This document shows, in pieces, positions 2,341 to 31,025 of a DNA stretch of 64,000 nucleotides. The position numbers and the translations under genes are program-made. The stretch is from a virus. Its lineage: Duplodnaviria; Caudoviricetes. The stretch lies in IMG/VR virus record IMGVR_UViG_3300013281_000008, positions 1 through 64,000 of that record. The stretch is one strand, 5' to 3'. The notes beneath the pieces are model-generated. The model was not told where the DNA came from. It made no database searches and worked only from the letters and a program-made list of their open reading frames with translations. Each line of letters begins with the position of its first letter. Positions within the stretch are counted from its first letter, which is position 1.

Positions 2341-2861
2341 TAAAAGTTTACTCCTAAGCCAATTGTTCCGTGGTTAACGTATCCATTCAATAGATAATTA
2401 TTCTCTAAAAACACTCTTTTGTCAAGAGGTATTTTAATACTAAATGTAGCCCCTCCCATAGGAATAACTTGTATTCCAGCCTTTTTAATGGAGAATAAAG
2501 GGAAATGCCGTTCTGGACGAACTAAAGTACCACCCACAACACCAACGCTAAATACTGATAAGAAGTCAATCTTGGGTCCTAGAAAGAATCCTCCAGAAGG
2601 ATCATTAATTGTATCTTTCATAAAGAATACACTATATTGCATATGCTTAGATTTATACGTTAAATTAACTTCTGGGTGCCAAGTCCAATCTGCATTCTTG
2701 TCTAGCTTTCTAGGAGCCAATGGAGCCAGTTCGGATTGACTTTTTCCATGAAAAGTGAGACCCAAGGGACTCAAAGATATTGAATCCGCTTGGGTCGTTT
2801 CAAAGGGAATTATCCAAAGACTTATAATTAATATAGCATATTTTAAATAATTGTCAAACAT
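2340..2861 (-). CDS. small outer-membrane beta-barrel-like protein
   Basis: Signal peptide, amphipathic beta-strands, C-terminal GLGVNF (terminal Phe). Confidence 0.55.
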   Translation of the reverse strand: MFDNYLKYAILIISLWIIPFETTQADSISLSPLGLTFHGKSQSELAPLAPRKLDKNADWTWHPEVNLTYKSKHMQYSVFFMKDTINDPSGGFFLGPKIDFLSVFSVGVVGGTLVRPERHFPLFSIKKAGIQVIPMGGATFSIKIPLDKRVFLENNYLLNGYVNHGTIGLGVNF

Positions 2862-3070
2862 TATTCACTTCTCTCCTTCAAATCTTCACTAAGCTGTCTC
2901 CAAAGCTGACTCTGAAGCTGACTCCAAAGCTGACTATAAAGCTGATCCCCAAGCTGACTCCAAAGCTGTCTATGAAGCTGACTCTCAAGCTGACTCCCAA
3001 GCTGACCCCTAAGCTGACTATAAAGCTGACTCTTAATATCTTCACCTAAAAAGTCTGAATTATTTTCCAC
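2861..3070 (-). CDS. xxQL-repeat cassette A (12 units)
   Basis: DFLGE head, 12-nt NNNNNNCAGCTT units, EDLKE tail. Confidence 0.8.
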   Translation of the reverse strand: MENNSDFLGEDIKSQLYSQLRGQLGSQLESQLHRQLWSQLGDQLYSQLWSQLQSQLWRQLSEDLKERSE

Positions 3071-3722
3071 CCGTTACTTCTCCGTTACAAAATGGAGGAT
3101 TCTTGAATACAGCGGAAGCTATTAATATAGCCGCCGCTTGATCTTCGTCCTCCCTAACCAAATTTAAATCATAAAGCTCATTTGCAGCCCTAATATAAGC
3201 ATCCTTCTTCGTAAATTTACGAAGCTTATTACCTTGCTCGTCTTTTCGAACGACCTTCTTTCCGGTCTTCTTCTTAAGACGATAGATCTTAGCATTATTG
3301 CTCTTTTCAGCTTTCGAGAATTGTGCTCCCATTAAACGCTTCCAAACTCCATCTCTAATATAAACAACATCTAGTTGGGTCTCGAATAATATATCTATAA
3401 CACAGAAATGAATAAATTCCAAGATCTTTTGAGAATAATTATTCTTGCTTCCAGTTGTTTCTTCTATTGCGATTATATCAATTTTACCATACTTTTGAGA
3501 TAAGTCTCTGATTCTCCTCATGATTTGCTCAGCCATCTCGATAGCAAATATACGATAACCCCAAGGATACCCTTCTTTTTTCTTCTTTTCCCTAAAGAAA
3601 TCAACTAGATGGATAACCCCACTAGTTAGGAGCTTTCCGTCCTGAACCAGAGCAAATCCAGTTTTAGTGCTTAAATCAAGCCCCAGAACTAACATTACTT
3701 TTACCATCCTTATATTCAACAT
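3060..3722 (-). CDS. RuvC-like Holliday junction resolvase
   Basis: LGLDLSTKTG (RuvC-I), IAIEE (RuvC-II), late D..AA.LIA; located at the end of the recombination operon; true start may be slightly downstream. Confidence 0.7.
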   Translation of the reverse strand: MLNIRMVKVMLVLGLDLSTKTGFALVQDGKLLTSGVIHLVDFFREKKKKEGYPWGYRIFAIEMAEQIMRRIRDLSQKYGKIDIIAIEETTGSKNNYSQKILEFIHFCVIDILFETQLDVVYIRDGVWKRLMGAQFSKAEKSNNAKIYRLKKKTGKKVVRKDEQGNKLRKFTKKDAYIRAANELYDLNLVREDEDQAAAILIASAVFKNPPFCNGEVTGGK

Positions 3723-5478
3723 GGACTATATTGTGGACTGAATTCTTAATTAGGCTATTATGTTCTACAATCAATGTAGACCCTTCCAGCTTTTCAAATA
3801 GCTTTAGAAAGCGATTCATCGAAAATTCGCTGAGATTGCTAAAGGGTTCATCGAAGATCCTGAATTGGAATCCATTCTTAATACAAACAATGCTATTTAG
3901 AGCTAAGCTAACTGCCAATTCCACCCGACGCATTTGGCCTCCTGAAAGAAGTCCAAGTGAAAGTTCTTTATCATTAATGTTTATCAATGTTTGAATCTTA
4001 GAAAGCTCGCCTTCCTCACCAAAGTTAGTAAATCTAATAGAAATAGGATGATCGAATAGGTCAACCAAAAGCTCATTTGTTTTAGCTGATAAGAACTCTA
4101 GAATTCCTTCAAATACATATTTCTTGATTTCCCTAAAACTTTCCTTAAGAGTCTCATACTTAGAGCTTAGTGATGTATTAGTTTCTCTTTGAGCGTGGTA
4201 TAAAGAAAGCTTTTCAGATTCTGCTTTGATATCAGATTCAAGCTTCTTAATCTTAGCATCTAAATCATTGACTGCTAAATTGGTAGAATTCTCTAGTTGC
4301 TTCTGGTGTTGTTGGATAAGGAATTCAGACTTCTCAATCTGAGCTTTAAGATTCTGTTCTCGCTTCTCTAACTGTTCGGCTTCGACAAGTTTAGCTCGTA
4401 ATTCTTCCAACTGTGTCTTAATTTCTAGATACTGAGTTTCATTCAATGAAGCAAGTTGTTCAGAAAGCTTTAAGATATTGGCTTCCCGTTCCTTAATTAC
4501 ATTTTGGAGTTGATCTATTTCCTTATTAATCTTGTCTCGGTTATGCACCATTTGACCACAGGTCGGACATTCGGAAGGGTTGTTTAATCCGTCTAACTTC
4601 TTCTTGTTATCAACGAGAGCATTACGAAGGGTATCGATCTTAAATTTCAAACTTTCAGCTGTCTTTTTAATGTCATAAGAAGAAAAGTATTTAGCTTCTA
4701 CTTTTCTAACTTCCAGTTTGAGTTCTTCTGCATTAGATTTAGCCGATTGTCCTTGTAGCCCTTGAAGTCTCTCCAGAATCTTCTTTTCCTCAGCAATCTT
4801 ATTCTGCAAATCTAGTTTGATGTATTCCGCTTGCTGCACAAGCTTGTCCTTAGACGCTTTAGTCTCCTGAAGATTATTATTATGAATCGTAATAATACGA
4901 GCTAGGCTATCAATCTGAGCATCTATCTGAACTGATGCAGTTTTAAGATCTCTAAGCTTCTCATGACAAAGTTTCCTAGCTTTGTCGAACTGAGAGAGAT
5001 TCTGAATCTCAGAAAGAATACGAGCCTTCTCTTCTTCGGAAGCTGTAATAAACTTACTAAAGTTATTCTGGGCAAAGTATACAGTTTGGCAATAGGTATC
5101 GAAATTGAAACCAATTAACTGCTCTATTAGTTTCTGGGTTTCTTTAGCATCCTTACCGAGTATAGGCTCAGATACTAGATTCTTATAGATACCTAGAAAA
5201 TTAGGATTTCTAGTTCGTCGGATTCGAATGCCATTCTTAAGGATAACTTCCACGTCGCAGGACTTCTCGCCATATCGGATAACCTCATCGATCTTTGTTT
5301 CCTTAGGCAGCTTGCCAAACAAGCACCAACTGACCGCATTGAAGATCGAACTCTTGCCACTACCTTCGCTCGTCTGGTCGGTTTCATTCCAACCAGTAAT
5401 TAAGGTAATACCATCTTTGACCTCGAACAGAAGTTCAGACCAAGAGAGGAAGTTCGTCGCTTTAACTCCTGCAATCAT
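3676..5478 (-). CDS. SbcC/Rad50/gp46-like recombination ATPase
   Basis: Walker A GSGKSS, long coiled coil with CPTC zinc hook, signature LSGGQ, Walker B FDEP. Confidence 0.92.
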   Translation of the reverse strand: MIAGVKATNFLSWSELLFEVKDGITLITGWNETDQTSEGSGKSSIFNAVSWCLFGKLPKETKIDEVIRYGEKSCDVEVILKNGIRIRRTRNPNFLGIYKNLVSEPILGKDAKETQKLIEQLIGFNFDTYCQTVYFAQNNFSKFITASEEEKARILSEIQNLSQFDKARKLCHEKLRDLKTASVQIDAQIDSLARIITIHNNNLQETKASKDKLVQQAEYIKLDLQNKIAEEKKILERLQGLQGQSAKSNAEELKLEVRKVEAKYFSSYDIKKTAESLKFKIDTLRNALVDNKKKLDGLNNPSECPTCGQMVHNRDKINKEIDQLQNVIKEREANILKLSEQLASLNETQYLEIKTQLEELRAKLVEAEQLEKREQNLKAQIEKSEFLIQQHQKQLENSTNLAVNDLDAKIKKLESDIKAESEKLSLYHAQRETNTSLSSKYETLKESFREIKKYVFEGILEFLSAKTNELLVDLFDHPISIRFTNFGEEGELSKIQTLININDKELSLGLLSGGQMRRVELAVSLALNSIVCIKNGFQFRIFDEPFSNLSEFSMNRFLKLFEKLEGSTLIVEHNSLIKNSVHNIVHVEYKDGKSNVSSGA

Positions 5479-6874: not shown

Positions 6875-7340
6875 CTTCTTTGAAATAAAGCACAGCCGCT
6901 TTATTATAAGCCAAAGCCGCCTCTTCTTCTGTTAAATAATATCCTAATGAAATAGTTTTATAATCTATAGTTATAGTTGCCTGATAACGCTTTTTTCTAT
7001 TTATCGGATGTACCCTTACGCCTTTATATTTTGATTGAGTATTCTTTCTCGGACGCTGATTTCTCATTTGTGTTTTTGGAGTCGCCCAACGCACATTTCC
7101 TGGTTCATAATTTCCATTAACATTTATTCTATCTATTTGGTGCTTATCTGAAGGACAATCTCCAACATCTGTACGAAACTGATTAAAACTATCTAACCAT
7201 GTTTTACAAACTTTTATGCCTCTACCTCCATATAATTCGTAGCCTGTCGATTTAGGATTTATACACCTTTGGCACATATTTTTCCAAATACGATATGTCT
7301 TTGAATAAGACATACCATGTACTTCTTCTTTACGTTTCAT
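6816..7340 (-). CDS. HNH-type homing endonuclease with C-terminal AP2 DNA-binding domain
   Basis: W..M..RC.....Y..YGGRGI.VC..W...IDRI..NGNYEP.NVRWAT, followed by AP2-like SKYKGV...LGYY.TEEEAA.AYN. Confidence 0.85.
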   Translation of the reverse strand: MKRKEEVHGMSYSKTYRIWKNMCQRCINPKSTGYELYGGRGIKVCKTWLDSFNQFRTDVGDCPSDKHQIDRINVNGNYEPGNVRWATPKTQMRNQRPRKNTQSKYKGVRVHPINRKKRYQATITIDYKTISLGYYLTEEEAALAYNKAAVLYFKEDAHINILPNNKSEEDESDE

Positions 7341-8193
7341 TCTTCTTACTCAGTGAAATTCCATCTTTCGTAATGTCTACAATCAGCTTGCGTCCTTGAA
7401 CCCCGGTGTCATCAAAAAGATGCCATTTATAAACTGTCCAAACCGATGTAATACCTTTAATCACTTCCTGACCTTTAGAAGTACCTTTAATATCTGCCAT
7501 TCTATTAACGTGCATAATAACGCTGGCGAAGAAATCTAGACCTTTACCGCCTGTTCTAGATTGTCCATGTGATCCTAGATTATCATATGTTTGATTAATC
7601 ACAAGCATATGAATCTGATCTTTTGCAAGTCTAGGAACTAAGCGTCTAAATCCTCTTTTTGAAGCTTTAGCCGCTGCACCGAGTTGCATTACGTCCTCAT
7701 TAGTGGTGTCCATTTCCTTGATAGACGGAGTATTACCCAATGAATCAATAACTACTAGAATCCTACAATCCGGGTCCGTATCTTTAAAATGTTCGATGTA
7801 TTCTTCGATCCCGTCAAACATTTCTTCTAAGAAATCAGGTTGAATAAGGCCGATCTTATCGGGATTAACTCCCCATGCTTCTAATCTTGTTTTTGTCGTT
7901 TTTTTCTCACTGTCGGCTAAAATAACAGCAACTCCTTGTTCCTGCGCTGCTTTCATGGCTTGAATGGAAAAACTAGTCTTACCTGAATTTTCCTTACCTG
8001 CCCATTCGAAGATATAACCAAAAGGAAGTCCTTTGATTTTAAAGGTTTCTTGAAACCAAGAAGGTAGTTCTATACAATTGTCTGGATTCTTAAGACTTGC
8101 GCCAGTATTAAAGATATCTGCCTTTTTCTTATCGTTTTTAAACTTAGCCTTAATCTTGGCAACAATCTTATCCATGTCAATTTTATCAGACAT
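7330..8193 (-). CDS. RecA/UvsX-like recombinase
   Basis: Walker A GKENSGKT, DSE, VIDSL, INQ, GGKGLDF.AS RecA motifs. Confidence 0.88.
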   Translation of the reverse strand: MSDKIDMDKIVAKIKAKFKNDKKKADIFNTGASLKNPDNCIELPSWFQETFKIKGLPFGYIFEWAGKENSGKTSFSIQAMKAAQEQGVAVILADSEKKTTKTRLEAWGVNPDKIGLIQPDFLEEMFDGIEEYIEHFKDTDPDCRILVVIDSLGNTPSIKEMDTTNEDVMQLGAAAKASKRGFRRLVPRLAKDQIHMLVINQTYDNLGSHGQSRTGGKGLDFFASVIMHVNRMADIKGTSKGQEVIKGITSVWTVYKWHLFDDTGVQGRKLIVDITKDGISLSKKNET

Positions 8194-8618
8194 TAAAATC
8201 CTTCCTTCAATCCACTTGCCATTTGACGGTACATAACGTGCCCATTCTTAAAGATATCTAGATAGGTTCTAACAACCCCCATCTTATTTTCAATTTCTTC
8301 AAACTTCTCTCTAACGTCGATATAATCGGGCATCGCTTCGGCATTAGCTTTTCTCTTAGTCGCATCGCTTCCTTCTGCTAAGTTAAGGGCTTTAGCATAC
8401 TCGACGTCTTTAAGACTAGAGAACTTAATAAGATCATTAGTTAAAGAGTGATGATAAGCTGCCAAATGTGACTGAGCAACCAAAAGTTCAGAAGCACGTC
8501 GCTGAGCTTCAGAGTCGGAAACCGCCCCTTCAGTTGGTAGCATCGAAATATACTTTTCAAGAAATTCATCAATATTCTCCATCCTTATTTTCTCCTTTTT
8601 AAAGGTATTTGCACGCAA
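8193..8618 (-). CDS. helical protein, possibly a UvsY-like recombination mediator
   Basis: Directly upstream of the recA-like gene; size and helical character similar; no diagnostic motif; start may be ATG 8582. Confidence 0.35.
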   Translation of the reverse strand: MRANTFKKEKIRMENIDEFLEKYISMLPTEGAVSDSEAQRRASELLVAQSHLAAYHHSLTNDLIKFSSLKDVEYAKALNLAEGSDATKRKANAEAMPDYIDVREKFEEIENKMGVVRTYLDIFKNGHVMYRQMASGLKEGF

Positions 8619-8674
8619 AATCCAGTTAATTCATTCTTCAAATTCTTTATAGCTGTTTGACATTCTATTTCAGT

Positions 8675-8704
8675 ATTATATCTCCCTAAACTATATATTG
8701 TCAA
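8675..8704 (-). promoter_or_regulatory. sigma70-type promoter TTGACA-N18-TATAAT
   Basis: Perfect consensus hexamers in the intergenic gap upstream of the recombination operon. Confidence 0.75.
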
Positions 8705-8754
8705 GTTAGATATATTATCTTGTGTCTTTACTAGAAATAAGAAAATCCATTCCA

Positions 8755-8946
8755 TCATTTCTTCTCCGGAGCTGAAGTATGTTCAAAAATTCCTCGAAAT
8801 AAAATGAGAGCGACGGTCTTGGCATCCTCAATATCTTTCATGACGATGGTCCCACCACCCCAATTCAATGTGAAATAGGATTGCGGCGAAATCATTAGAA
8901 CGGGCTCTGATTTTGTTTCTACAATTTTAAATACATCTTCACTCAC
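8755..8946 (-). CDS. hypothetical protein
   Basis: 63-aa ORF with GGAGGA SD. Confidence 0.5.
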   Translation of the reverse strand: MSEDVFKIVETKSEPVLMISPQSYFTLNWGGGTIVMKDIEDAKTVALILFRGIFEHTSAPEKK

Positions 8947-8966
8947 ACAGTCCTCCTAGCTGGGGG

Positions 8967-9152
8967 TCATCCAACTCTCTCCGTTTTTAGTTCCCCGGTT
9001 TCCTTATCAAAATCATAACGAACCACGATGAAACCATTGATAACCAGGTCTTCCATAAGTTTTTCAGAAAACTTAATTTTTGAGGCGATTTTCCTAATCA
9101 CCTCTTTGGCTTTTTGATCTTCAAAATATCCCTCATAGTCATCCTCACTCAT
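8967..9152 (-). CDS. hypothetical protein
   Basis: 61-aa ORF. Confidence 0.5.
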   Translation of the reverse strand: MSEDDYEGYFEDQKAKEVIRKIASKIKFSEKLMEDLVINGFIVVRYDFDKETGELKTERVG

Positions 9153-9530
9153 CCCTCACCGCCTCATAAGTCGCTTCGAATTTCTTAGCCCATGCGATGT
9201 CGAGCTTCTCAACCCGATACTTCTTCATCAACTCTGCTAGTTCTTTCAAAAACTCATTTCGAGACTTTTCTGATGAATAGGTAAAAGCTCCGTTCACTTC
9301 GCCAACTAACTCACTCATATAACCTCCACCACGACCGGCCTCTTGCGGTATTTCATAAATCTTCTGCTTTCCTACCTTTTTCGTACATGTATAATTGTGA
9401 AATCGTTATAGCAAGAGTTGCCACTCCAGACAAGAGTAAAGAACTCACCATATTATCAGGTCCTCCCGCCAAACCAACGCAGAAGCCAGAAACCATAACG
9501 CCCATATATCTAAGTAAGAAATCCATTTAA

Positions 9531-9713
9531 TTATCCTTGTTTAAGTTCTTCTAGTTTATCTTCTGAAATAATATCTAAACTAACATTTTGTTTACCTAAT
9601 TGCTTTTCTAAAGAGCTAAATAAATTAAACATAAAAATATAATCCGAATTATTATGTTCTTCTTCAAACCGATAAACAATCTCACTTGATTTAAATTTAA
9701 AATGAGCCAACAT
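9531..9713 (-). CDS. hypothetical protein
   Basis: 60-aa ORF. Confidence 0.45.
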   Translation of the reverse strand: MLAHFKFKSSEIVYRFEEEHNNSDYIFMFNLFSSLEKQLGKQNVSLDIISEDKLEELKQG

Positions 9714-9714
9714 A

Positions 9715-10164
9715 TTAGAATTCCATCCTCAAATAAGTACCGACTTTCGGATTGGCCAATTCAGCGTCCACTTCCGCACCAACCCACGAATTGAAAAATG
9801 GGAGTCTAAACTCGCCGCCAATACGAGGTACTAACTTCGAAGGGTCCTTGACAGCAACTGCAACACCGCCTTTAACTGCATAATGTTTCTTATCTCGGAT
9901 CTTTTCTAGTTCCTTCTCGTTCTTCTGTTCGTTGGTCTTACTGTCCTTTTCTTTATCTCGGGTGATTCGTTCAGTGAGCTTTCCGGTATTAGGATCAAAC
10001 TTCTCTACAACTTCTTTTTCTTTCTCCTTAACGACCTTTTCCTTTTCAACAATCTTTTCAACTTCTCGCACTTTGTCAGGTGCCATATAGTAACCCAAAC
10101 CGCTTCCGAGAACGAATATAACAACTCCAGCTAATGCCAATTTAAGATAGTTCATTATTTTCAT
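9715..10164 (-). CDS. membrane-anchored coiled-coil protein with beta-rich C-terminus
   Basis: N-terminal TM helix, EK-rich coil, ends in RMEF. Confidence 0.55.
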   Translation of the reverse strand: MKIMNYLKLALAGVVIFVLGSGLGYYMAPDKVREVEKIVEKEKVVKEKEKEVVEKFDPNTGKLTERITRDKEKDSKTNEQKNEKELEKIRDKKHYAVKGGVAVAVKDPSKLVPRIGGEFRLPFFNSWVGAEVDAELANPKVGTYLRMEF

Positions 10165-10324
10165 CCTTCAGATCTATAATCGTATTACTTTGTTGATTTA
10201 AAATGTCTGTATATAGTTTGCATCTAAGCTCATTATTATAATTTCCAAAATTATACCCTTCAACGTAAAGCGTATCTTTTAAAATAACAAAGAGAGAAAA
10301 TGCTTGTTGTTCTGTTAATCTCAT
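10142..10324 (-). CDS. hypothetical protein
   Basis: 60-aa ORF. Confidence 0.45.
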   Translation of the reverse strand: MRLTEQQAFSLFVILKDTLYVEGYNFGNYNNELRCKLYTDILNQQSNTIIDLKDENNELS

Positions 10325-10436
10325 TTTTATTCCTTATTGATCTAAATAACGACTATCGCCTTTATTGCAATCTGGGCAATATTCTTCTCCAGTATTATTC
10401 AAAGGTTCATCTCCGCAACTAGGGCATTCTTCTAAT

Positions 10437-11108
10437 TTATAAGATTCCATAGTTCCTTTTTAACACATTTTCAGCCGTTTGTAAAATCCTTTCTTCAAAT
10501 TCTTCTAATCCATCATTATTGCTAACGATTTTAGCATTCTTGGCTATTTCTTTAATTTCAAGCTCAGACGAATGTTCACCTGCTTTAGCTTCGGCTTCAT
10601 CTCGCTTAATATAGATTACATCGAATCCTAACTTGTCGTCAAGCATGGTCTTTAAAGTGTTGTATTCATTAAGGAATCTCAAATCAGTCACGACATAATT
10701 CTGGGACGTCTGAAACTGTATGCTTTCTATCATCTTGCGAATATGGATAGTTGGCTCTCGTTCTCTAAGAATCTCAGTACCAACGTACTGAAGAACCGCC
10801 CTAGGGGTCCAAAATCCAGCATTAAGGTGCTTCCTAAAATCCTGAGTTCTAAGCTTCAGTCCATACATCTCGTAAATCAAAGGTAGTGTGACCAGAGTCA
10901 AACGAAAAGCAGGGACTGCTGGATTTAAAGCCATTTCCTTAAAGTGTGGGTCTTCAAAATATTTAATGTCGGTTTCAAATACTATTGAGCACACTTCCTT
11001 TAAGTATTTAGCCAACTGAAGCTCAACAATATCAGGGTATTTAGCTTTAATAAAGTTAAATGCCGTTGTTTTGCCCGCTCCCTTATTTCCGGTCAAACCA
11101 ATAATCAT
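10437..11108 (-). CDS. deoxynucleoside monophosphate kinase
   Basis: IIGLTG.KGAGKTT P-loop, R.vLQ.vGTE, VTDLRF.NE, H.SE motifs. Confidence 0.88.
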   Translation of the reverse strand: MIIGLTGNKGAGKTTAFNFIKAKYPDIVELQLAKYLKEVCSIVFETDIKYFEDPHFKEMALNPAVPAFRLTLVTLPLIYEMYGLKLRTQDFRKHLNAGFWTPRAVLQYVGTEILREREPTIHIRKMIESIQFQTSQNYVVTDLRFLNEYNTLKTMLDDKLGFDVIYIKRDEAEAKAGEHSSELEIKEIAKNAKIVSNNDGLEEFEERILQTAENVLKRNYGIL

Positions 11109-13264
11109 AATACCAATACCTCTGCCAACTTAGCCTGGTTGCGCTTCAATTTATAATTAAGAAACAACGATTTTACATCGATGATATTATCAAATACTAG
11201 CGCAGTTTTATATAGTTTGTCAAGTAGCCTTTTAGGATCATAGTCACCAGCAAAATCTTCAATAAGCTTAATAGTACCATCTTCTTTAAAGTAGGCATGG
11301 ATCTTATCGCCTTCAAATACGGATTTATTCTCTATTGCGTCTTTAACCTTTTGCTCATTACTTCGGTGAGGATTGAGGATCTTCTCGGTTATGGTTTTTT
11401 TATATGCCCATCGATTCATGTCTTTAATATCGAAGATCTCCTTGACATATTTATGGTAAATGTCTACATAATTCGTGTGACCGTCAATCATTGCCTTTAG
11501 TATCTCTTGGATAAACTCAGCAAGTGCTGGTTCCTTCTGAGTAGCTTTAAGGGCTGAGCCTTTAGTCTTAATCTTCTTTCCATCATAAAGGAGATAGTTC
11601 TTAGCTTTAGCAATAACTACTCTAGGATAGTAGCCATCATCTTCCCATCTAATCTTCTCCGGGAATATGGAGTTAAGTTCTACTAGAAGATCTTTCTTTT
11701 CTTGGTCTGAGAAAGGAGATTGATCTTCTTTACAAACCATAATGGAATCAGTGTCGCCAGACGTAATGATAAACTTCTTAGATTCGGCCCAAGATATCGA
11801 TTTATTTAGAATCTCTCTGCCATTCCTTGTGACTTCAGCGGCACCATTTGGATAATTAAAACTAAGTCCAGTTGCACCCATAAAACCAAAGAAACTATTA
11901 ATTAGGATTTTCTGACTCTGTTCTAATCCTGAAAAATAGCCATCTTTAGTTTCTTTTGCTTTCTTCTTGTTCTTCAATCTCTCGGATGTAAAGTATTGGA
12001 GAATCTGTAGCATATTTTGATTTGGATCTTTAGCTTTATCGAAAATCTCATAATTGATCATGATTGAAGGATACAAGCTAGATGCATCCCACTTGACACA
12101 ATGTGAATAAATTCCAGAATGGCCAAATGAAATACCGCCTTCGAATTGTGCTGGAGGTGAGGCTTTCGGAATCGAATGACCTTCCTGTAGATAGCTTCTA
12201 ACCATCAAACCATTAATCTGGCTTCCAGTTGCTGATTCTATAATTGACTGATAAGAACGAGGAATAGATTGGGCCATATAAAAGAATACCGGGCTCATTA
12301 AATCGTAGAGGGCCAATGCATCATCCGCATCGTGTTCGGCATAATCCTTAATCTTCTGCCATTCCTCTTGAATCTGATAATTAGCATTGATTTTGCTAGC
12401 GTCGTAAAACTGTCGTCCTTCTACTTGGAGTCCTTCCTCGGCTATGATATTCTTAAGACTATAGCTTTTGTACTTTCTTCCTACATCGTACTTGAACGCC
12501 AAGAAAAGAGTATCAATTACTTCCCGACCAAAAATAGTAGCTCGATTGTAGTTATAGAACTGGGAGCCATCTTTCCTAAACTTCCTTTGGAATTGCTCAA
12601 ACTTAACCGATGTATTGTTACGTCCTAACTTTAGGAATGTCCGACTCATGTTAGCTACGTGTTGTAAATAGGGCAAGTCAAACATAAAGATATTATGTCC
12701 AACAATAATGGAAGGATCTATTTCTCTCACCCAATCGCACCATTTCTCTAGCATGTCCTTCTGGTTTCTGTACTGATCATAACAAAACATCTTGCGAGTA
12801 ATTTTTCCGTCAAAAGAACGATAAGTATTCGAGATAATCAATACCTTAGAATCGGGAGTATGCTTAATAGACGTCGTTTCAATATCGAAAGAAAGAATAG
12901 ATACTTGCTTATGGTTCATTCCTTTAAAATAGGTAAAGCCATCCTTAAGCATGGCTTGTTCTTTAGGATCATTGGGTGCCCAGACGTCTTCTTTACCAAG
13001 TTCGTAAAGCTTCTTCTCTTTACGGAATTCAAAATAATCATCATAAAGCTTTGCATACTTATAATGAAGATTACCATCAAGCTCTAGCCATCCTTTAGGT
13101 TCTAGGGGTTGTGGGGCTAAAACCCAGGCTTCATAAGGATAAGACAGAGTGGAAATTTCTCCATTCTTTTCAATAAATATCTGAAGTGTGTCCCTATTAT
13201 ACTCAATAGAAACAATATTTTCGGTTGGCTCTTTGCCGTGGACTATTTCAAGGATTTTAGTCAT
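11105..13264 (-). CDS. polB: family B DNA polymerase
   Basis: Exo motifs FDIET, GHNI..FD; pol motifs DASSLYPS, K.L.NS.FG, GDTDS; start ATG 13264 overlaps the primase stop (ATGACTAA). Confidence 0.95.
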   Translation of the reverse strand: MTKILEIVHGKEPTENIVSIEYNRDTLQIFIEKNGEISTLSYPYEAWVLAPQPLEPKGWLELDGNLHYKYAKLYDDYFEFRKEKKLYELGKEDVWAPNDPKEQAMLKDGFTYFKGMNHKQVSILSFDIETTSIKHTPDSKVLIISNTYRSFDGKITRKMFCYDQYRNQKDMLEKWCDWVREIDPSIIVGHNIFMFDLPYLQHVANMSRTFLKLGRNNTSVKFEQFQRKFRKDGSQFYNYNRATIFGREVIDTLFLAFKYDVGRKYKSYSLKNIIAEEGLQVEGRQFYDASKINANYQIQEEWQKIKDYAEHDADDALALYDLMSPVFFYMAQSIPRSYQSIIESATGSQINGLMVRSYLQEGHSIPKASPPAQFEGGISFGHSGIYSHCVKWDASSLYPSIMINYEIFDKAKDPNQNMLQILQYFTSERLKNKKKAKETKDGYFSGLEQSQKILINSFFGFMGATGLSFNYPNGAAEVTRNGREILNKSISWAESKKFIITSGDTDSIMVCKEDQSPFSDQEKKDLLVELNSIFPEKIRWEDDGYYPRVVIAKAKNYLLYDGKKIKTKGSALKATQKEPALAEFIQEILKAMIDGHTNYVDIYHKYVKEIFDIKDMNRWAYKKTITEKILNPHRSNEQKVKDAIENKSVFEGDKIHAYFKEDGTIKLIEDFAGDYDPKRLLDKLYKTALVFDNIIDVKSLFLNYKLKRNQAKLAEVLVL

Positions 13265-15760: not shown

Positions 15761-15762
15761 GT

Positions 15763-19553: not shown

Positions 19554-20280
19554 CTTTCTTCTTATCCAATTCTTCTTTAACTTCTTTGATTGCTTCGTCT
19601 AATTCCGCCACACGACTGTTACGTTGAGAAGGTGTACCATGCCAAGATAATTCCCAAAACACGCCATAAAGAATGTGGAAAAGGGAATAATGAACTTCAT
19701 CATATTCTAGTAGAACTTTACCCGGAGTTACTTCCACTTTATGGTGTTCTTCATCGTAAACCGTTCCCTTTTGACCGAGCTTTAAGGGTAAATTAATCAA
19801 TTCGTTAGCCGGAGTCAATGAAATGGCATAACCGCCTTTGGTTCCTTCTTTGATAAATTCATCAGCAAGCCAAGTTCCCCAGCCATGAAACTGAGGAAAG
19901 AGACCTCCAGAAAGAATTCTAGGAACTTCTAAGAACTTATCTTCCTTTTCACTGAACTCTTGGGTAATTCGAAGATCCCAATATAGTTCTAGATGATCAA
20001 TCTCGGAAGCTTTCTTCTCCGTTGGAACATGAAGACCTTCGTGAACAAGCTCATTGAATCCTCTCGGCATAATAAGAGAAAGGAAAGCTTCGTGTTTTTC
20101 TGCCAGAAGAAACAAATCTCGTAGGATTACATCATTATCAAGATAACAGTTACTAGTGAGAAGCTTGGAAAGCTTAGACGTTTTATTCTCAGTGTAGAAT
20201 TCACCAGCTTCAGAATTCCAGACGGTCATCATTATTTCACCACCTTTGGTTATCTTGATATCTCCATCACCCAAGTTCAC
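19546..20280 (-). CDS. hypothetical protein
   Basis: 244-aa ORF, GTG start, SD supplied by cassette B. Confidence 0.7.
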   Translation of the reverse strand: MNLGDGDIKITKGGEIMMTVWNSEAGEFYTENKTSKLSKLLTSNCYLDNDVILRDLFLLAEKHEAFLSLIMPRGFNELVHEGLHVPTEKKASEIDHLELYWDLRITQEFSEKEDKFLEVPRILSGGLFPQFHGWGTWLADEFIKEGTKGGYAISLTPANELINLPLKLGQKGTVYDEEHHKVEVTPGKVLLEYDEVHYSLFHILYGVFWELSWHGTPSQRNSRVAELDEAIKEVKEELDKKKDD

Positions 20281-20396
20281 TTATTACTCTCCTTCAAATC
20301 CTCAGTAAGCTGATTCCCAAGCTGACTCATAAGCTGACTCTCAAGCTGACTCCTAAGCTGACCCTTCAACTCTTCACCTAGGAAATCAGAGTTCAT
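20277..20396 (-). CDS. xxQL-repeat cassette B (5 units, 39 aa; not in ORF track)
   Basis: Translates as MNSDFLGEELKGQLRSQLESQLMSQLGNQLTEDLKESNK*. Confidence 0.8.
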   Translation of the reverse strand: MNSDFLGEELKGQLRSQLESQLMSQLGNQLTEDLKESNK

Positions 20397-23227: not shown

Positions 23228-23443
23228 TCATAAAACATTTGTTTCCTTTAAATCTTCAATAAGAAGATTTAGCTGACTCACAAGCTGATCCCTAAGCTGA
23301 TCCCTAAGCTGACCCCTAAGCTGAATCCCAAGCTGATCATCAAGCTGACTCCAAAGCTGACTCCAAAGCTGATCCTCAAGCTGACTCCAAAGCGGTCTCC
23401 CAAGCTGACCTTTAATATCTTCTCCTAGAAAGTCTGCTTTCAT
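23228..23443 (-). CDS. xxQL-repeat cassette C (12 units)
   Basis: Family head, units and tail present. Confidence 0.8.
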   Translation of the reverse strand: MKADFLGEDIKGQLGRPLWSQLEDQLWSQLWSQLDDQLGIQLRGQLRDQLRDQLVSQLNLLIEDLKETNVL

Positions 23444-24387
23444 TTGCGCTTCTTCCTAAACTTATTTAGCATAGACTTTTGGAAACCATATGGATCTTCA
23501 TCGTCTTCACTATCTTCATATGGATCGTATTCATCATTTTCAGCGTCTAGATGAGCTTCCATCATTTGCCTAGCTTTCAGAATAGCATCTTCAAACTTAA
23601 TACCAATACAAAGGACGCTAATAATAAGATCTTTAATATGGTCAATTGTAAAACCCTCGGTTTGCCGAACCCAGTATTCTACATCAATCTCATCTTTCAC
23701 TTTAGCTTTAAGGAACTCCCTTCTAGCATTAGCATCTGGAGTAGGAACTTCAATCACAAGAGCAAATCTAGAAGGTCTATTTCGAATACGAGGAGGAATC
23801 CTATCTAAATAATTAGTTGTAGCGATGTAAAGAACATTCTGAATCTGCATCTCACCATCTAGTAGGGAGAGGAAAGAGCCTTCGTCTCGCTCAAGCAACT
23901 TGTCCAGTTCTTCAAAGATAACTAGAATTCTTCTTTCTTGCTTCTCAATACTTCTGATAATATCCACAGCTTCAGTAAGTAGGCTGGGAGATGGACAGAA
24001 GAATACAATACTTCCGTTATTAACTTCTTTCTCAATTACTTTCGAAACTATACTAGTTTTTCCCGTCCCAGGTAAACCCCAAAGTAGAATTCCACGCTTG
24101 TAAACCATCCCATACTTAGCATAACGACTCTTAACATCTTCCGACCAAAACTGCTCAATCTCACTGATAATTGTAGAACCAACGAAACTGGGAAGTTCAA
24201 CTAGGTCATCAGTCATACTGGACATATTCTTAAAGAACATCTCTCCAGACATATCTCGATGAATTTGATAAATACCAGCTGGGAACTCTTTTTTTCCAGG
24301 ATAGTTCTTTCTTTTGAAATAGACTACTTCTCCGTTAGTGAGAAAGCCATCGTATTCCTTCTCAATTTTGTTTATAATTTTAGGCAT
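23440..24387 (-). CDS. AAA+ ATPase
   Basis: GILLWGLPGTGKT, FEELD, TTNY, NRPSRF (second region of homology). Confidence 0.9.
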   Translation of the reverse strand: MPKIINKIEKEYDGFLTNGEVVYFKRKNYPGKKEFPAGIYQIHRDMSGEMFFKNMSSMTDDLVELPSFVGSTIISEIEQFWSEDVKSRYAKYGMVYKRGILLWGLPGTGKTSIVSKVIEKEVNNGSIVFFCPSPSLLTEAVDIIRSIEKQERRILVIFEELDKLLERDEGSFLSLLDGEMQIQNVLYIATTNYLDRIPPRIRNRPSRFALVIEVPTPDANARREFLKAKVKDEIDVEYWVRQTEGFTIDHIKDLIISVLCIGIKFEDAILKARQMMEAHLDAENDEYDPYEDSEDDEDPYGFQKSMLNKFRKKRK

Positions 24388-24616
24388 TCTTCTTCTCCTT
24401 CAAATCCTCAATAAGCTGACTCCTAAGCTGATTCCCAAGCTGATCCCTAAGCTGTCTCCAAAGCTGACTCATAAGCTGATCATAAAGCTGACTCCTAAGC
24501 TGATCCCAAAGCTGACTCATAAGCTGATCCCAAAGCTGACTCAAAAGCTGACTCCTAAGCTGACTCCTAAGCTGATAGTTCAAATCTTCACCTAGGAAAT
24601 CCTGATTAGCTTTCAT
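24380..24616 (-). CDS. xxQL-repeat cassette D (14 units)
   Basis: Family head, units and tail present. Confidence 0.8.
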   Translation of the reverse strand: MKANQDFLGEDLNYQLRSQLRSQLLSQLWDQLMSQLWDQLRSQLYDQLMSQLWRQLRDQLGNQLRSQLIEDLKEKKNA

Positions 24617-25425: not shown

Positions 25426-25533
25426 TTATATAGACCCAGACCAAGACCAAGACCTAGACCCAGACCCAGACCTAGACCCAGACCCAGACCAATATTCTTT
25501 TCTGTATTTATTCTTTTGACTTCTTGGTAACAT
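25426..25533 (-). CDS. 35-aa Ser-Gly/Trp/Arg dipeptide-repeat peptide (not in ORF track)
   Basis: Translates as MLPRSQKNKYRKEYWSGSGSRSGSGSRSWSWSGSI*; starts 1 nt after the Sm-like gene stop. Confidence 0.6.
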   Translation of the reverse strand: MLPRSQKNKYRKEYWSGSGSRSGSGSRSWSWSGSI

Positions 25534-26560: not shown

Positions 26561-26750
26561 TAACCTTAAGCATAGGCTCTACGATACACCATCCAAGTCT
26601 CGCCGTCTTATAAAAGGGCATCATAACTTCTTTTATTTCAATTGAGAAAGAATAAGCTTCTCTTTCGTTTTTGAAAGTAAGACTTCTTTCTTCTTGGATA
26701 TCTAAATCAACATAGAAGATTTTATATGTTACTCGCCAAATCTGATTCAT
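26523..26750 (-). CDS. hypothetical protein
   Basis: 75-aa ORF, SD supplied by cassette E. Confidence 0.55.
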   Translation of the reverse strand: MNQIWRVTYKIFYVDLDIQEERSLTFKNEREAYSFSIEIKEVMMPFYKTARLGWCIVEPMLKVIEGGKVDGTNTI

Positions 26751-26884
26751 TTATTTCTCTCCTTTAAATCTTCGTTAAGCTGACTCCAAAGCTGACTCAT
26801 AAGCTGACCCCCAAGCTGATCCCTAAGCTGTCTCGCAAGCTGATCCTTCAATTCTTCACCTAGGAAATCCTGATTAGCTTTCAT
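26747..26884 (-). CDS. xxQL-repeat cassette E (6 units, 45 aa; not in ORF track)
   Basis: Translates as MKANQDFLGEELKDQLARQLRDQLGGQLMSQLWSQLNEDLKERNK*; ATGA overlaps at both ends. Confidence 0.8.
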   Translation of the reverse strand: MKANQDFLGEELKDQLARQLRDQLGGQLMSQLWSQLNEDLKERNK

Positions 26885-27066: not shown

Positions 27067-27350
27067 TATAAATCCCTCTTTATAGTTTTTACGATCTCTT
27101 GAAACTTAACATATTGAATACGATTCATTAAATGCAGAGCAATAAAATGAAGCTCATTTAATTCTTTAAGCATGTGTTTTTTAATGTTAGTACAAGCCTG
27201 TAGTCTTTCCATCGTTCTATGTAAACTACCAGTCTCTATTTCCTTTTCAGCTTCTTTTAGACGTTTAAAACGAGCGGTAAATGCTCTGAATCTATCAGCA
27301 AAGACTGCTTTCTGTTCATCATTAATTTGCATGTTAGATTTGGTTTTCAC
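27066..27350 (-). CDS. hypothetical protein
   Basis: 94-aa ORF, GTG start after the cassette F SD. Confidence 0.55.
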   Translation of the reverse strand: MKTKSNMQINDEQKAVFADRFRAFTARFKRLKEAEKEIETGSLHRTMERLQACTNIKKHMLKELNELHFIALHLMNRIQYVKFQEIVKTIKRDL

Positions 27351-27450
27351 TTTTCTCCTTCAAATCCTCAATAAGCTGACTCCTAAGCTGATTCCCAAGC
27401 TGATTACTAAGCTGACCCTTCAACTCTTCACCTAGAAAGTCAGAGTTCAT
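27334..27450 (-). CDS. xxQL-repeat cassette F (4 units, 38 aa; not in ORF track)
   Basis: Translates as MNSDFLGEELKGQLSNQLGNQLRSQLIEDLKEKSENQI*. Confidence 0.78.
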   Translation of the reverse strand: MNSDFLGEELKGQLSNQLGNQLRSQLIEDLKEKSENQI

Positions 27451-27737
27451 TTAATATCCTTCAAATCCTCAATAAGCTGATCCCAAAGCTGATCCCTAAG
27501 CTGACTCCCAAGCTCTTTCCCAAGCTGATCCTCAAGCTGACTCCCAAGCTCTTTCCCAAGCTGATCCTCAAGCTGACTCCAAAGCGGTCTCCCAAGCTGA
27601 ATCTTAAGCGGACCCTCAAGCTGACTCCAAAGCTGACTCCAAAGCTGATCCTCAAGCTGACTCCAAAGCGGTCTCCCAAGCTGACTCCAAAGCTGATAGT
27701 TCAAATCTTCACCTAGGAAATCCTGATTAGCTTTCAT
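27447..27737 (-). CDS. xxQL-repeat cassette G (19 units)
   Basis: Family head, units and tail present; tandem with F. Confidence 0.8.
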   Translation of the reverse strand: MKANQDFLGEDLNYQLWSQLGRPLWSQLEDQLWSQLWSQLEGPLKIQLGRPLWSQLEDQLGKELGSQLEDQLGKELGSQLRDQLWDQLIEDLKDIK

Positions 27738-28132
27738 TTAATATCTCCGAAGAATTCTTCGATAATCCGCTTTGAAACTTTGATAATCTGACTATTTCTC
27801 ATATAAACTAGATAAGCTTCATATATCTTTTGAGTATTTTGGCTCATATCACCAAGTATAACTGCAAACCCTCTTACTTTTGATTGCTTTCTAGAGTCTC
27901 TCCAGTGAACTCGACTTACAACTCCATCTAAAGCAAGCTTTCCAAGATCTCCTGGTAGTATAACGTCTACTCTACACCATTCTTTAGGTGTTGGTAACTC
28001 CCCATTTGTTTCAAAGAACATTCCTTTATTACTTAGATCTTTTAACTTCAAATCTCCAGATGATGTTTCCCAAGCAACTGACAGTCTATCATTCACAATT
28101 GGGATTCGAATGTCTGATCTCTTTTCTTTCAT
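27734..28132 (-). CDS. PilZ-domain protein
   Basis: RxxxR (RSDIR) and DxSxxG (DLSNKG) c-di-GMP motifs; G.V.R...GFAV beta-barrel pattern. Confidence 0.8.
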   Translation of the reverse strand: MKEKRSDIRIPIVNDRLSVAWETSSGDLKLKDLSNKGMFFETNGELPTPKEWCRVDVILPGDLGKLALDGVVSRVHWRDSRKQSKVRGFAVILGDMSQNTQKIYEAYLVYMRNSQIIKVSKRIIEEFFGDIK

Positions 28133-28133
28133 T

Positions 28134-28526
28134 TTACTTCTCTAAGTAATAGTAGGTCTTCGAGTCTGGATCAAAAGTATAGTCCTTATCTATAATAGTC
28201 TCTTTACAATTAGTGCCTTTAAATTGGCCTGCATATTTGTAAGTCCCATCTTGAAACAAAAAATAAGCATTTCGAAAACCGTCTAATTTTAAAGCACATT
28301 CTTGGGTGAAATCTTTAAGGAATTGAATAATTTGATCGTCGCAACCGCCAATTGCAATTAAACTATCCTCATGGACGCCTTTAAAACAACCGGATACGTC
28401 CTTAACTTGAAATCCATCGTTAAGTAAGTATTTTCGGCCATTTTCATGGGCTTTTAGATTAGTAGCTTCACAATTCTGCGCGTTATATGCACTAATAATA
28501 TAAGTAACTGGATAAAATGGTCTCAC
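28134..28526 (-). CDS. DUF3293/SAM-lyase-like small protein
   Basis: ISAYN...N...GF...V.G.FKG..E.S....F.QEC.L pattern. Confidence 0.4.
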   Translation of the reverse strand: MRPFYPVTYIISAYNAQNCEATNLKAHENGRKYLLNDGFQVKDVSGCFKGVHEDSLIAIGGCDDQIIQFLKDFTQECALKLDGFRNAYFLFQDGTYKYAGQFKGTNCKETIIDKDYTFDPDSKTYYYLEK

Positions 28527-28551: not shown

Positions 28552-28941
28552 TTAGTCTACTACAGGACGGATCATCTCGTCAAACATGCCCTTCTCACGG
28601 ACCTGTCCAATTCGATAATCTCCCACTGGAACTGGCACTTTATCGTGTTCATTATGTACAAGGTTTGTTTCCTTGAACACTCGCAAATAGGTTACATTTG
28701 AAGTAGGATCTCGAAATACCATAAAATTCCGTGAATCCTTATTCTTTTCAGGCGCTCCATGAACTTTAGCCATTTGGTCGACATTTTCACCTTCATCTAC
28801 AAGTCGGTGTGCATGTCCCGTATGCTCACCATGAGCCAATACATAGTTCCTAGGATCTTCTACAACTCCGCTTGGGATTGCATCGATCTTATAGATTAGT
28901 ACATCGCCTTGTTCTCTGATTTCTCGTGCTTCATCTGACAT
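28552..28941 (-). CDS. conserved partner protein (QGDV / GExTGHxH / HxEH motifs)
   Basis: EQGDV, LAHGEHTGHAH, LVHNEH, G.Y.I.QVRE; start ATG 28941. Confidence 0.65.
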   Translation of the reverse strand: MSDEAREIREQGDVLIYKIDAIPSGVVEDPRNYVLAHGEHTGHAHRLVDEGENVDQMAKVHGAPEKNKDSRNFMVFRDPTSNVTYLRVFKETNLVHNEHDKVPVPVGDYRIGQVREKGMFDEMIRPVVD

Positions 28942-28955: not shown

Positions 28956-29837
28956 TTAAGTTAAAATTATAGGTTCCAAATAGTTCGGCAGATTCATTCT
29001 CCACGCAAGCGCCGCCTTGCAAGTCTCAATTGTGTCTTCCACTCTCTCATAATGATAGGTGTTAGTCAAGCTGGGATTCTTCATACATAAGACCTTCCTA
29101 ACGACTCCATCTCCAAAGTCCATTGAATAGAGTTTGTAGTCGCACCAAGCTTTTCTATCGTCTTTCCATTCATCTAGTAACTTAGAATTAGTATCCTTTA
29201 AAAGCCGTTCTACTGGAATAAGCTTTAATGCTTCTCGTCTGATATCGACATTCTGCTCACCAAGAATCTTCTTTACGTCGAGCTTTTCTTTAGGAGTTTC
29301 AATAACATAAGCTGGCACTCGAATACCATTTAAAGCATAGATACCCCAGCCATCACGGTATTTAATAGCCATCTTTCCCTCATTATGTAGCCGTCCGTCT
29401 TTCATTGAGACAAACTCCGGTCTATCGCAAATAATGGCAGCTTTTTCATAGAAATAGACCCAACCGCAACTTTTAGCTAGTTTGGACCATTGTTCTAGTA
29501 ATTTACTTTGATCTTTGGTATACTTCACGCCAATTTGCTCGCAAAATTGATAGAAAGCAATCCAATAGTTATCTTGTTGACCCCAGAAATAAGTCCCATT
29601 GTAAACAGCGGCCTTATTTCCTTTGGCTTTATTTATCAATTTTTCAGCTTCTAGAGGCGATGAAACCTTGATAATTTCAGGCTCGGGTTTTTCTAACCGT
29701 CTATAGAATTCTTTGATAATTCTTTCAGCCACTTCGAAATTGGCGGGTTCTGTCGATAGACCAACTTCAAGTGCCTTTTGTCTGAATTCAATTAGATCTT
29801 GTTCCTGTTGTTTTGTTAATGATTCAATTTTCTTCAT
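28956..29837 (-). CDS. DUF6745-like protein
   Basis: LT..Q......ST.P.....SP..A...GQ.D.YW..FY...CGW...ICDRP.....GRLH.E...A..Y.DGW..YA.NG.RVP. Confidence 0.65.
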   Translation of the reverse strand: MKKIESLTKQQEQDLIEFRQKALEVGLSTEPANFEVAERIIKEFYRRLEKPEPEIIKVSSPLEAEKLINKAKGNKAAVYNGTYFWGQQDNYWIAFYQFCEQIGVKYTKDQSKLLEQWSKLAKSCGWVYFYEKAAIICDRPEFVSMKDGRLHNEGKMAIKYRDGWGIYALNGIRVPAYVIETPKEKLDVKKILGEQNVDIRREALKLIPVERLLKDTNSKLLDEWKDDRKAWCDYKLYSMDFGDGVVRKVLCMKNPSLTNTYHYERVEDTIETCKAALAWRMNLPNYLEPIILT

Positions 29838-30048
29838 TTTCTTTCTCCTTCAAATCTTCTTCAAACTGATTCCTAAGCTGCCACCCAAGCTGACTCCCAA
29901 GCTGATTCCCAAGCTGACTCCCAAGCTGATTCCCAAGCTGACTCCCAAGCTCTTTCCCAAGCTGATTCACAAGCTGACTCCCAAGCTGAATCTTAAGCTG
30001 ACTCACAAGCTGACCCTTCAATTCTCCACCTAGAAAGTCAGAGTTCAT
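29824..30048 (-). CDS. xxQL-repeat cassette H (13 units)
   Basis: Family head, units and tail present; supplies the SD of the DUF6745-like gene. Confidence 0.8.
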   Translation of the reverse strand: MNSDFLGGELKGQLVSQLKIQLGSQLVNQLGKELGSQLGNQLGSQLGNQLGSQLGWQLRNQFEEDLKEKENEEN

Positions 30049-30362
30049 TTAATATCCTTCAAATCCTCAATAAGCTGATTCCCAAGCTGACTCCCAAGTT
30101 GACTCCCAAGCTGATCCCTAAGCTGACTCCCAAGCTCTTTCCCAAGCTGATCCTCAAGCTGACTCCAAAGCTGATCCTCAATCTGACTCCAAAGCGGTCT
30201 CCCAAGCTGAATCTTAAGCGGACCCTCAAGCTGACTCCAAAGCTGACTCCAAAGCTGATCCTCAAGCTGACTCCAAAGCGGTCTCCCAAGCTGACTCCAA
30301 AGCTGACTCTTCAATTCTTCACCTAGGAAATCCTCTTTTTTCAATCGGCTTGCTTTCGGCAT
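30045..30362 (-). CDS. xxQL-repeat cassette I (20 units)
   Basis: Family core and tail present; tandem with H. Confidence 0.78.
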   Translation of the reverse strand: MPKASRLKKEDFLGEELKSQLWSQLGRPLWSQLEDQLWSQLWSQLEGPLKIQLGRPLWSQIEDQLWSQLEDQLGKELGSQLRDQLGSQLGSQLGNQLIEDLKDIK

Positions 30363-30568
30363 ATTTGAACCCTCACAATTCCGGGTGTGTTAAGAGCCTT
30401 CTTGATCGTATGTCTCATTATAACATCAAACGTGGCAGTCTCAGGATCAAAAAACAACGTAATGCTATTCTCCCGATCTACTTCACATGAGCTTACCACA
30501 TGCACGCTCTTTCGATAAGCTACATCATAAATTTCAATTGGAGCAACTGGCGGCATATCAAATATCAT
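30341..30568 (-). CDS. hypothetical protein
   Basis: 75-aa ORF with GGAGG SD. Confidence 0.5.
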   Translation of the reverse strand: MIFDMPPVAPIEIYDVAYRKSVHVVSSCEVDRENSITLFFDPETATFDVIMRHTIKKALNTPGIVRVQICRKQAD

Positions 30569-30731
30569 TTTTCATTCCTCCATTTCATAGCTTCAATGTT
30601 ATATTCCATTTGCCTAATCATATATTCAAAGTCTAGCATGAATTCTTCTAAAGCGATAGAGGCCCTAATATGATTTTCTTTAACTCTGTCTTGATAATCC
30701 TTAATAAGTTCTGGATATTCTTTAATGATTT

Positions 30732-31025
30732 TCATAGTTTAATATCCTTCAAATCCTCAATAAGCTGATCCCTAAGCTGACTCCCAAGCTGACTCCCAAG
30801 CTGACTCACAAGCTGACTCCAAAGCTGACTCCTAAGCTGACTCACAAGCTGACTCCCAAGCTGATTCCCAAGCTGATCCCTAAGCTGTCTCCAAAGCTGA
30901 CTCATAAGCTGATCATAAAGCTGACCTCTAAGCTGATTCCCAAGCTGACTCACAAGCTGACCTCTAAGCTGATCCCAAAGCTGACCCTTCAATTCTCCAC
31001 CTAGGAAATCCTGATTAGTTTTCAT
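30732..31025 (-). CDS. xxQL-repeat cassette J (19 units)
   Basis: Family head, units and tail present. Confidence 0.8.
   Translation of the reverse strand: MKTNQDFLGGELKGQLWDQLRGQLVSQLGNQLRGQLYDQLMSQLWRQLRDQLGNQLGSQLVSQLRSQLWSQLVSQLGSQLGSQLRDQLIEDLKDIKL

Follow-up and report, generated by a model that had tools for sequence, protein, structure and literature searches.

We analyzed a family of ten small genes in the first 64 kb (64,000 nucleotides; hereafter, the window) of the 83,142-bp virus record IMGVR_UViG_3300013281_000008, an uncultured phage from a bioreactor sludge metagenome. The encoded mini-proteins are built of tetrapeptide units, in which two variable residues are followed by Gln and Leu (xxQL). 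A tract of the same design occurs inside phage proteins of the DUF6745 family (Pfam PF20530), and the ten genes are very probably a detached, amplified, and diversifying form of this tract. Overall, the explanation that we favor, with moderate confidence, is that the mini-genes encode detached and diversified tract copies, of which at least one (copy 8) would dock back onto a DUF6745 protein lacking the repeat, the tract thereby becoming an exchangeable insert.

Anatomy and coding potential of the ten mini-genes

Ten minus-strand open reading frames (ORFs) of 38–105 amino acids were present in the ORF list at the coordinates that an earlier note on this DNA had given for ten repeat cassettes; Tandem Repeats Finder (TRF) detected 12-nt arrays at all ten sites, and tblastn agreed. 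Each mini-gene consists of a head (M..DFLG-E/G-E/D-L/I), 4–20 xxQL units, and a tail (x-EDLK-E/D). When only the stretch between the head (ending with DFLGxxL) and the tail (beginning with xEDL) was counted, copies 1–10 contained 12, 5, 12, 14, 6, 4, 19, 13, 20, and 19 units, respectively, making exactly the 124 that the earlier note had estimated; its description of 4–20 units per copy between a conserved head and tail was likewise borne out. Its claim that every array is a whole multiple of 12 nt applied to nine copies, the exception being copy 3, in which three extra residues (NLL) between the last unit and the tail place the tail out of the four-residue register. At the first variable position of the unit, the residue is G, W, R, K, or E, and at the second it is S, D, G, or N. 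By a looser count of 130 units, the constant half was CAGCTT in 109; Q was replaced by P in seven units and by E in approximately ten. Unit entropy was 1.0–1.6 bits at nucleotides 1, 2, 4, and 5, approximately 0.6 at nucleotides 3 and 6, and at most 0.3 at nucleotides 7–12; that is, the third positions of both variable codons were nearly fixed and the CAGCTT half was almost invariant.

The xxQL frame contained no stop codon in 1497 nt of array, as compared with 13 and 43 stops in the other frames of the same strand and 1, 115, and 29 in the antisense frames. Under independence of the unit positions, the expected number of stops is 7.8, and the probability of observing none is ~4e-4, which is a rough value, the units being copies of each other. 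All four units starting with TA were TAT and did not carry the otherwise near-fixed third-position G, indicating avoidance of TAG. Furthermore, the DFLG and EDLK codons differed only synonymously among the ten copies, and DNA similarity between copies ended at the ORF borders. Because the codon changes in the head and tail are synonymous only and stops are avoided, purifying selection on the protein is indicated. As judged from these sequence features, selection acts on the mini-protein, and the copies form a variable-length, translatable small-protein family. This agrees with the earlier note, which had described a variable-length element kept translatable, and overlaps of the ATGA type with neighboring genes point the same way. 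All ten mini-genes overlap or abut neighbor genes (ATGA, TAATG, and similar), most have an upstream Shine–Dalgarno site, and the JGI gene callers likewise called the mini-gene ORFs.

Copy 1 (2861–3070; 69 amino acids, 12 units) starts with GTG and overlaps the RuvC-like gene upstream, while its stop overlaps the ATG of the next gene. Copy 2 (20277–20396; 5 units) follows a helicase gene. Its ORF is also open from TTG 20417; the start at ATG 20396, which yields the 39 amino acids of the JGI call, has a Shine–Dalgarno site, and the resulting N terminus corresponds to the MNSDFLG of copies 6 and 8. Copy 3 (23228–23443; 71 amino acids) has 12 units and the irregular NLL, copy 4 (24380–24616; 78 amino acids, 14 units) lies between uracil-DNA glycosylase (UDG) and AAA-ATPase genes, and copy 5 (26747–26884) has 45 amino acids and 6 units. 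Copy 7 (27447–27737; 96 amino acids, 19 units) and copy 6 (27334–27450; 38 amino acids, 4 units) form a tandem in which copy 6 is the second gene. In a further tandem, copy 9 (30045–30362; 105 amino acids, 20 units) is the first gene, followed by copy 8 (29824–30048; 74 amino acids, 13 units), which overlaps the start of the DUF6745 gene by 14 nt. Copy 10 (30732–31025) has 97 amino acids and 19 units. All ten are on the minus strand and confined to the early/replication arm, as expected from the statement of the earlier note that the structural arm holds none. No eleventh copy was found by tblastn with copy 10 in the whole 83,142-bp record.

In Logan data from four runs of one bioreactor-sludge study, short-read unitigs were broken within the arrays, and flanks belonging to different copies were joined in the assembly graph. 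In addition, an antisense "PKL" frame is nearly open, with the single stop mentioned above. Such behavior would be expected of assembly artefacts or of noncoding satellite DNA whose frames are open by chance. However, the window is backed by another long contig from JGI (L033), which differs from it by 2 mismatches in 20.9 kb, and an independent ENA contig (L035) matches copy 8 exactly. The conservation of head and tail, the coupling of starts and stops to neighboring genes in all ten copies, and the homologous mini-gene families in many other phage contigs also speak against an artefact, and we regard this explanation as highly improbable. Owing to the short-read breaks, the unit numbers of the longest arrays (copies 7, 9, and 10) are those of the long contigs only. 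Variation in unit number was not seen in near-identical contigs of other samples, which were either identical to the window or broken at the arrays.

Exact blocks of sequence were common to copies 7 and 9 (124 nt), to copy 3 and copies 7 and 9 (70 nt), to copies 4 and 10 (68 nt), and to copies 4 and 6 (52 nt). This mosaic indicates that the copies exchange sequence. The tandems 7+6 and 9+8 (27334–27737 and 29824–30362) shared 86% identity over 376 nt, including a junction of 53 identical nt, and they flank, as direct repeats, a block of the DUF6745 gene, its partner gene, a SAM-lyase-like gene, and a PilZ-like gene. Recombination between the two tandems would delete or move this four-gene block. 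As for the tails, their DNA places AAGGAG, AAGGAT, or AAGGAA 5–12 nt ahead of the downstream start codon in ten of ten copies. The shared blocks, the flanking direct repeats, and these sites could mean that the arrays act mainly as DNA or RNA, supplying dispersed homology for recombination and module shuffling as well as ribosome-binding sites, with peptides that matter little. We consider this improbable. The synonymous head and tail changes and the avoidance of stops imply selection on the protein, and the residue pattern is kept where codon usage differs, the constant half being CAGCTT in the window and CAGCTC in a mycobacterial prophage described below. Besides, a ribosome-binding site in the 3′ end of the upstream gene is normal in packed operons, and nothing is conserved outside the ORFs. 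The AAGGAG-like sites in the tails are ordinary translational coupling. Of the "mobile expression linker" considered in the earlier note, the part on expression is thus matched by these sites, whereas mobility is not, given the lack of conserved DNA outside the ORFs. A diversity-generating retroelement was also considered and rejected, as no RVT_1 match was obtained in the 83-kb record, while controls matched.

The DUF6745 repeat tract in fused and detached states

In a tblastn search of cultured phages, one record matched, that of the Mycobacterium prophage prophiGD102-1 (MW584211). Its gp38 comprises an N-terminal region, ~47 units of [W/R/G][G/D]QL, and a C-terminal DUF6745 domain. In the window, a DUF6745 gene without the repeat (28956–29837, minus strand; 293 amino acids) lies directly downstream of copy 8, a key piece of context that the earlier note had missed. 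The protein matched PF20530 with E 8.1e-20 and 71.4 bits against a cut-off of 27, as well as phrog_31813 (E 5e-16), and it aligned with gp38 of prophiGD102-1 on both sides of the tract, yet without the tract. Approximately 23 of 65 database homologues of the window protein carry 5–47 units of [W/R/G/E][S/D/N/G/A]-Q-[V/L] at one common site, which is located between an N-terminal helical subdomain and the core. When IMG/VR was scanned with copy 10, 28 loci were obtained, ~24 of which were DUF6745 genes with an internal tract. Free-standing multi-copy genes were found in that scan only at L022 and L024/L028, each with a repeat-less DUF6745; as observed, all three other IMG/VR records with detached xxQL genes also hold a repeat-less DUF6745.

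The internal tract and the mini-genes share a 12-nt unit with two variable and two constant residues, the sequence [G/W/R/E][S/D/N/G] followed by Q-L or Q-V, and nearly fixed third codon positions. Internal tracts vary in unit number too (5–47 or more), and both forms occur in the neighborhood of a DUF6745 core and a partner gene with a GExTGHxH motif. Unlike the internal tract, the window tract exists as ten separate ORFs, each with its own start and an acidic head and tail. Since the window tracts do not lie inside DUF6745, we call the mini-genes a detached variant and not a member of the family. The earlier note did not recognize the element as a described one. This view was not supported, as most DUF6745 (PF20530) proteins carry the repeat as their internal tract, and its design matches that of the mycobacteriophage protein Tweety gp54 (PMC2884959, PMC9262239). 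As to whether the family is an already described Pfam, the repeat does lie within PF20530 proteins, but the mini-proteins themselves match no Pfam or PHROG family: none of the ten reached a Pfam cut-off (best, 19.7 bits vs 24.8), and all PHROGs matches had E of at least 0.009 and were to unnamed families. Known curated repeat families, such as pentapeptide repeats and coiled-coil families, gave no significant match and were rejected, the period being 4 residues and not 5 or 3.5. A phmmer search with copy 4 against 5.8 billion proteins returned no match, not even the query, and it is no measure of rarity because the composition correction of HMMER suppresses such repeats. A codon-level pattern of the head matched only four unrelated proteins in IMG/VR. 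Literature searches found no paper on DUF6745, none naming typical repeat strings, and none describing the detached mini-gene form.

Mini-gene families were also present in other phages (IMG/VR loci L022, L024, L048/L050, L066, L069, L074, L080, L092, and L111; Logan loci L002 and L040) as near-pure xxQL, xxQV, xxAL, xxSV, or xxSL ORFs. Like those of the window, they have a lineage-specific head and tail, the latter often with EDL or DLK, and stand beside a repeat-less DUF6745. Tail motifs in common were QL-K-EDL (L074, L092), W-EDL (L022), and Q-DLK (L048/L050), and the L048/L050 head resembles LGExL. The families elsewhere number from 1 to ~45 copies per locus and are mostly tandem and adjoining DUF6745, whereas the window copies are dispersed over 28 kb at early-gene junctions. 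Nine or ten copies (xxAL) were counted at L048/L050, six at L074, and eight (xxSV) at L066. The largest library among the loci examined was that of the jumbo-phage contig L111 (IMGVR_UViG_3300025162_000016, 368,758 bp), where ~45 head-to-tail xxQV mini-genes with heads like MNNKLINDQV and tails like QLESHE occupy ~13 kb (7000–19900) and flank a repeat-less DUF6745. The same arrangement was seen with the closest homologues of the window DUF6745. At L002, xxSL mini-genes lie on both sides of DUF6745 and are followed by the partner gene; three mini-genes follow DUF6745 at L040, and L039 has a degenerate one.

The association was then quantified in a survey, for which 80 further DUF6745 loci were obtained via two core motifs independent of the tract. 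DUF6745 was typed by hidden Markov model and period-12 arrays by TRF, within 10 kb, and cores were collapsed at ≥80% identity, resulting in 94 loci. Of the 27 repeat-less loci, 18 had arrays outside the DUF6745 gene, as did only 4 of the 67 loci with an internal tract (Fisher p = 2e-9). In a conservative recount, which used the motif-found loci only and moved doubtful cases against the hypothesis, the corresponding values were 10 of 19 and 3 of 46 (p = 9e-5). The fused and detached states are therefore distributed in a complementary manner. The detached genes usually adjoin DUF6745 directly, and many are multi-copy. On a FastTree of array-stripped cores, which was quick and is indicative only, fused and detached states interleaved. 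The tree requires 17 changes, and well-supported branches force no fewer than 7; the window DUF6745 grouped with L002.

Predicted docking and comparison with Tweety gp54

An AlphaFold (AF2) model of the window DUF6745 had a pLDDT (predicted local distance difference test) of 94 and a pTM (predicted template-modeling score) of 0.83, and it resembled no solved structure (Foldseek E ≥ 0.3, VIA-align Z ≤ 4.5). The ESM Atlas model of copy 10 was a long helix (pLDDT 0.81), and its nearest clusters were small viral hypothetical proteins and a DUF6745 cluster. The peptides are thus predicted to be helical, as the Leu-striped helices of the earlier note require. Complex modeling covered copy 8 with the repeat-less DUF6745, along with three controls. 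The complex scored 0.71, compared to 0.01 for the best control. In the calibration set, 58 of 80 solved complexes but only 2 of 110 mismatched pairs attained that mark; because a custom alignment was used, this calibration is only rough. Three runs shared at least 91% of contacts, and the pLDDT of the partner in the complex was at least 72. The contacts fell on DUF6745 residues 77–117 and 129–133, around the insertion site of the relatives' tract, with the head of copy 8 lying against residues 129–131. On these models, binding of the mini-proteins to DUF6745 in trans is a prediction whose chances we judge to be even or slightly better.

The closest studied analogue is Tweety gp54, which on comparison of the sequences is alike in design but not of the same family. 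In the mycobacteriophage protein, 48 units of [G/W/Q][S/Y]AA separate a unique N-terminal region from a unique C-terminal one, and codon positions 1 and 2 of the repeat vary while the third is fixed (PMC2884959). Our nucleotide counts on the Tweety record agreed with that report, and the same pattern was observed in gp38 of prophiGD102-1 and in the window. The family of Tweety gp54, Che8 gp57, and PMC gp51 (phrog_3416) resembles the window genes in its 12-nt unit, one half of which varies (NGG-RRY type) while the other is invariant, in the frequent G or W at residue 1 and S at residue 2, and in differing copy number (48, 26, and 15 units). On the other hand, the constant dipeptide is AA in Tweety gp54 and QL in the window, and gp54 is a single gene per genome as opposed to ten. 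Its function has been shown genetically, whereas the window mini-genes are known from sequence and models. According to PMC9262239 and PMC8549241, repeats of gp54 are gained or lost in mutants that escape the prophage defences of Phrann (gp29/gp30) or MichelleMyBell, and changes in repeat number "tune" gp54 as a counter-defence by a route that "remains obscure" (PMC8549241). In the published model, the repeat of gp54 spaces two flanking domains, which cannot apply to the free-standing repeat of the window. Neither the mini-proteins nor the window DUF6745 matched phrog_3416 in PHROGs.

These comparisons bear on whether the mini-proteins form an independent family of self-associating rods, decoys, or host-binding scaffolds that acts without DUF6745 and is linked to it only by a shared repeat origin. 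Five of ten copies lie far from DUF6745 among replication and repair genes, the same repeat design serves the unrelated Tweety gp54, so the tract is portable between contexts, and a free-standing rod spaces no domains and must have an activity of its own. However, the strong complementarity of the fused and detached states, the detached genes that usually adjoin DUF6745 in many unrelated phages, and the difference between the docking score and the best control would not be expected of such a family. We therefore judge it unlikely, while preferring the explanation that the mini-genes are detached DUF6745 tract copies that dock back onto the core.

Several observations weigh against the explanation based on detachment and docking. 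Copies 1–5 are 2–26 kb away from DUF6745 and have unrelated genes (RuvC-like, helicase, AAA-ATPase, and UDG) as neighbors, so that not every copy need serve DUF6745. At 9 of 27 repeat-less DUF6745 loci, no detached array was present within 10 kb, and gp174 of the cultured Microcystis cyanophage Ma-LMM01 (L123, NC_008562, 6644–7780), which is DUF6745-like, has a non-repeat linker at the tract site; the repeat is thus not obligatory. The gp174 gene adjoins a uracil-DNA glycosylase gene, and the arm of the window likewise has a UDG gene. With regard to structure, the tract within a fused homologue was modeled as low-confidence helices (AF2 pLDDT 50–69), and G, S, N, and D, all of them abundant in the units, form helices poorly. 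The docking evidence comes from modeling of one copy of ten (copy 8), and the high score may reflect the memory of the model for fused homologues, since the pair resembles the halves of a split gene. The case for translation, in turn, is drawn from sequence features. Moreover, literature and fold searches gave neither an assigned function nor a solved fold for DUF6745. The flanking domains of Tweety gp54 are unrelated to DUF6745, as no Pfam domain was found in gp54 and hhalign gave a probability of 0.1%; accordingly, any transfer of function from Tweety is by analogy only.

In the mechanism that we propose, the ten ORFs are real early genes. The tract was very probably detached from DUF6745 in this lineage and amplified into a paralogous family, whose members range from 4 to 20 units in length and also differ at the two variable positions of the unit. 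Diversification would proceed via unit slippage together with recombination or gene conversion among the copies. The mini-protein is probably a long Leu-striped helical rod, with the acidic head and tail as caps. At least the copy adjoining DUF6745 probably docks onto the repeat-less protein beside the insert site of its relatives, so that different inserts could be accommodated by one DUF6745 core. As an analogy, Tweety gp54 suggests that the specificity of a host-takeover or counter-defence function may be determined by the module. Such a role is suggested by that analogy and by a neighborhood that includes the SAM-lyase-like gene, and we propose it only tentatively. What distinguishes the window is the dispersal over 28 kb; some copies may act alone, or gene blocks may also be shuffled by way of the repeats.

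A broader and equally speculative proposal is that many uncultured phages keep a hypervariable library of micro-proteins that plugs in trans into one repeat-less DUF6745 core and its GExTGHxH partner, as a combinatorial system for counter-defence or host targeting. If so, one core would have many specificities, and repeats of the Tweety type would be active binding elements rather than passive spacers. The occurrence of free-standing repeats in place of the DUF6745 tract, in many phage lineages and with no flanking domains to be held apart, speaks for an intrinsic binding or structural activity of such tracts. Furthermore, a detached partner that is multi-copy and diversifies fast is a strong hint that DUF6745, a widespread phage family, takes part in an arms race. 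The window offers simple test pairs in this respect, with one core and ten natural inserts of 4–20 units.

Neighboring genes and other repeats in the window

The partner gene of DUF6745 (28552–28941, minus strand; phrog_27831) encodes 129 amino acids with the GExTGHxH motif, and its homologues adjoin DUF6745 in L002 and L022. The protein has no sequence relative in PDB. In a structure search of the ESM Atlas, it was near a cluster of 366-amino-acid DUF6745 proteins (TM 0.63), which may point to a fusion elsewhere. The SAM-lyase-like gene and the weak PilZ-like gene (27734–28526, minus strand) were assigned by Pfam matches. The polymerase–primase region had no blastn match among cultured phages, and the helicase had no close relative in IMG/VR. 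A scan for promoters and terminators was at chance level.

A second, different coding micro-repeat is present in the arm of the mini-genes: the ORF at 25426–25533 (minus strand; 35 amino acids) ends in a run of GS/RS/WS dipeptides, which corresponds to 9.8 copies of the 6-nt repeat AGACCC at 25432–25490. A perfect 18-nt tandem repeat (4.6 copies, 100% matches) was found at 1412–1494. Tandem repeats of 66 nt (22 residues) were observed at 56566–56708 and 57491–57711 in one or more late-arm genes, probably for a fibre-like or adhesin-like structural protein. A single tRNA-Asn (GTT) gene is located at 17951–18025 on the minus strand.

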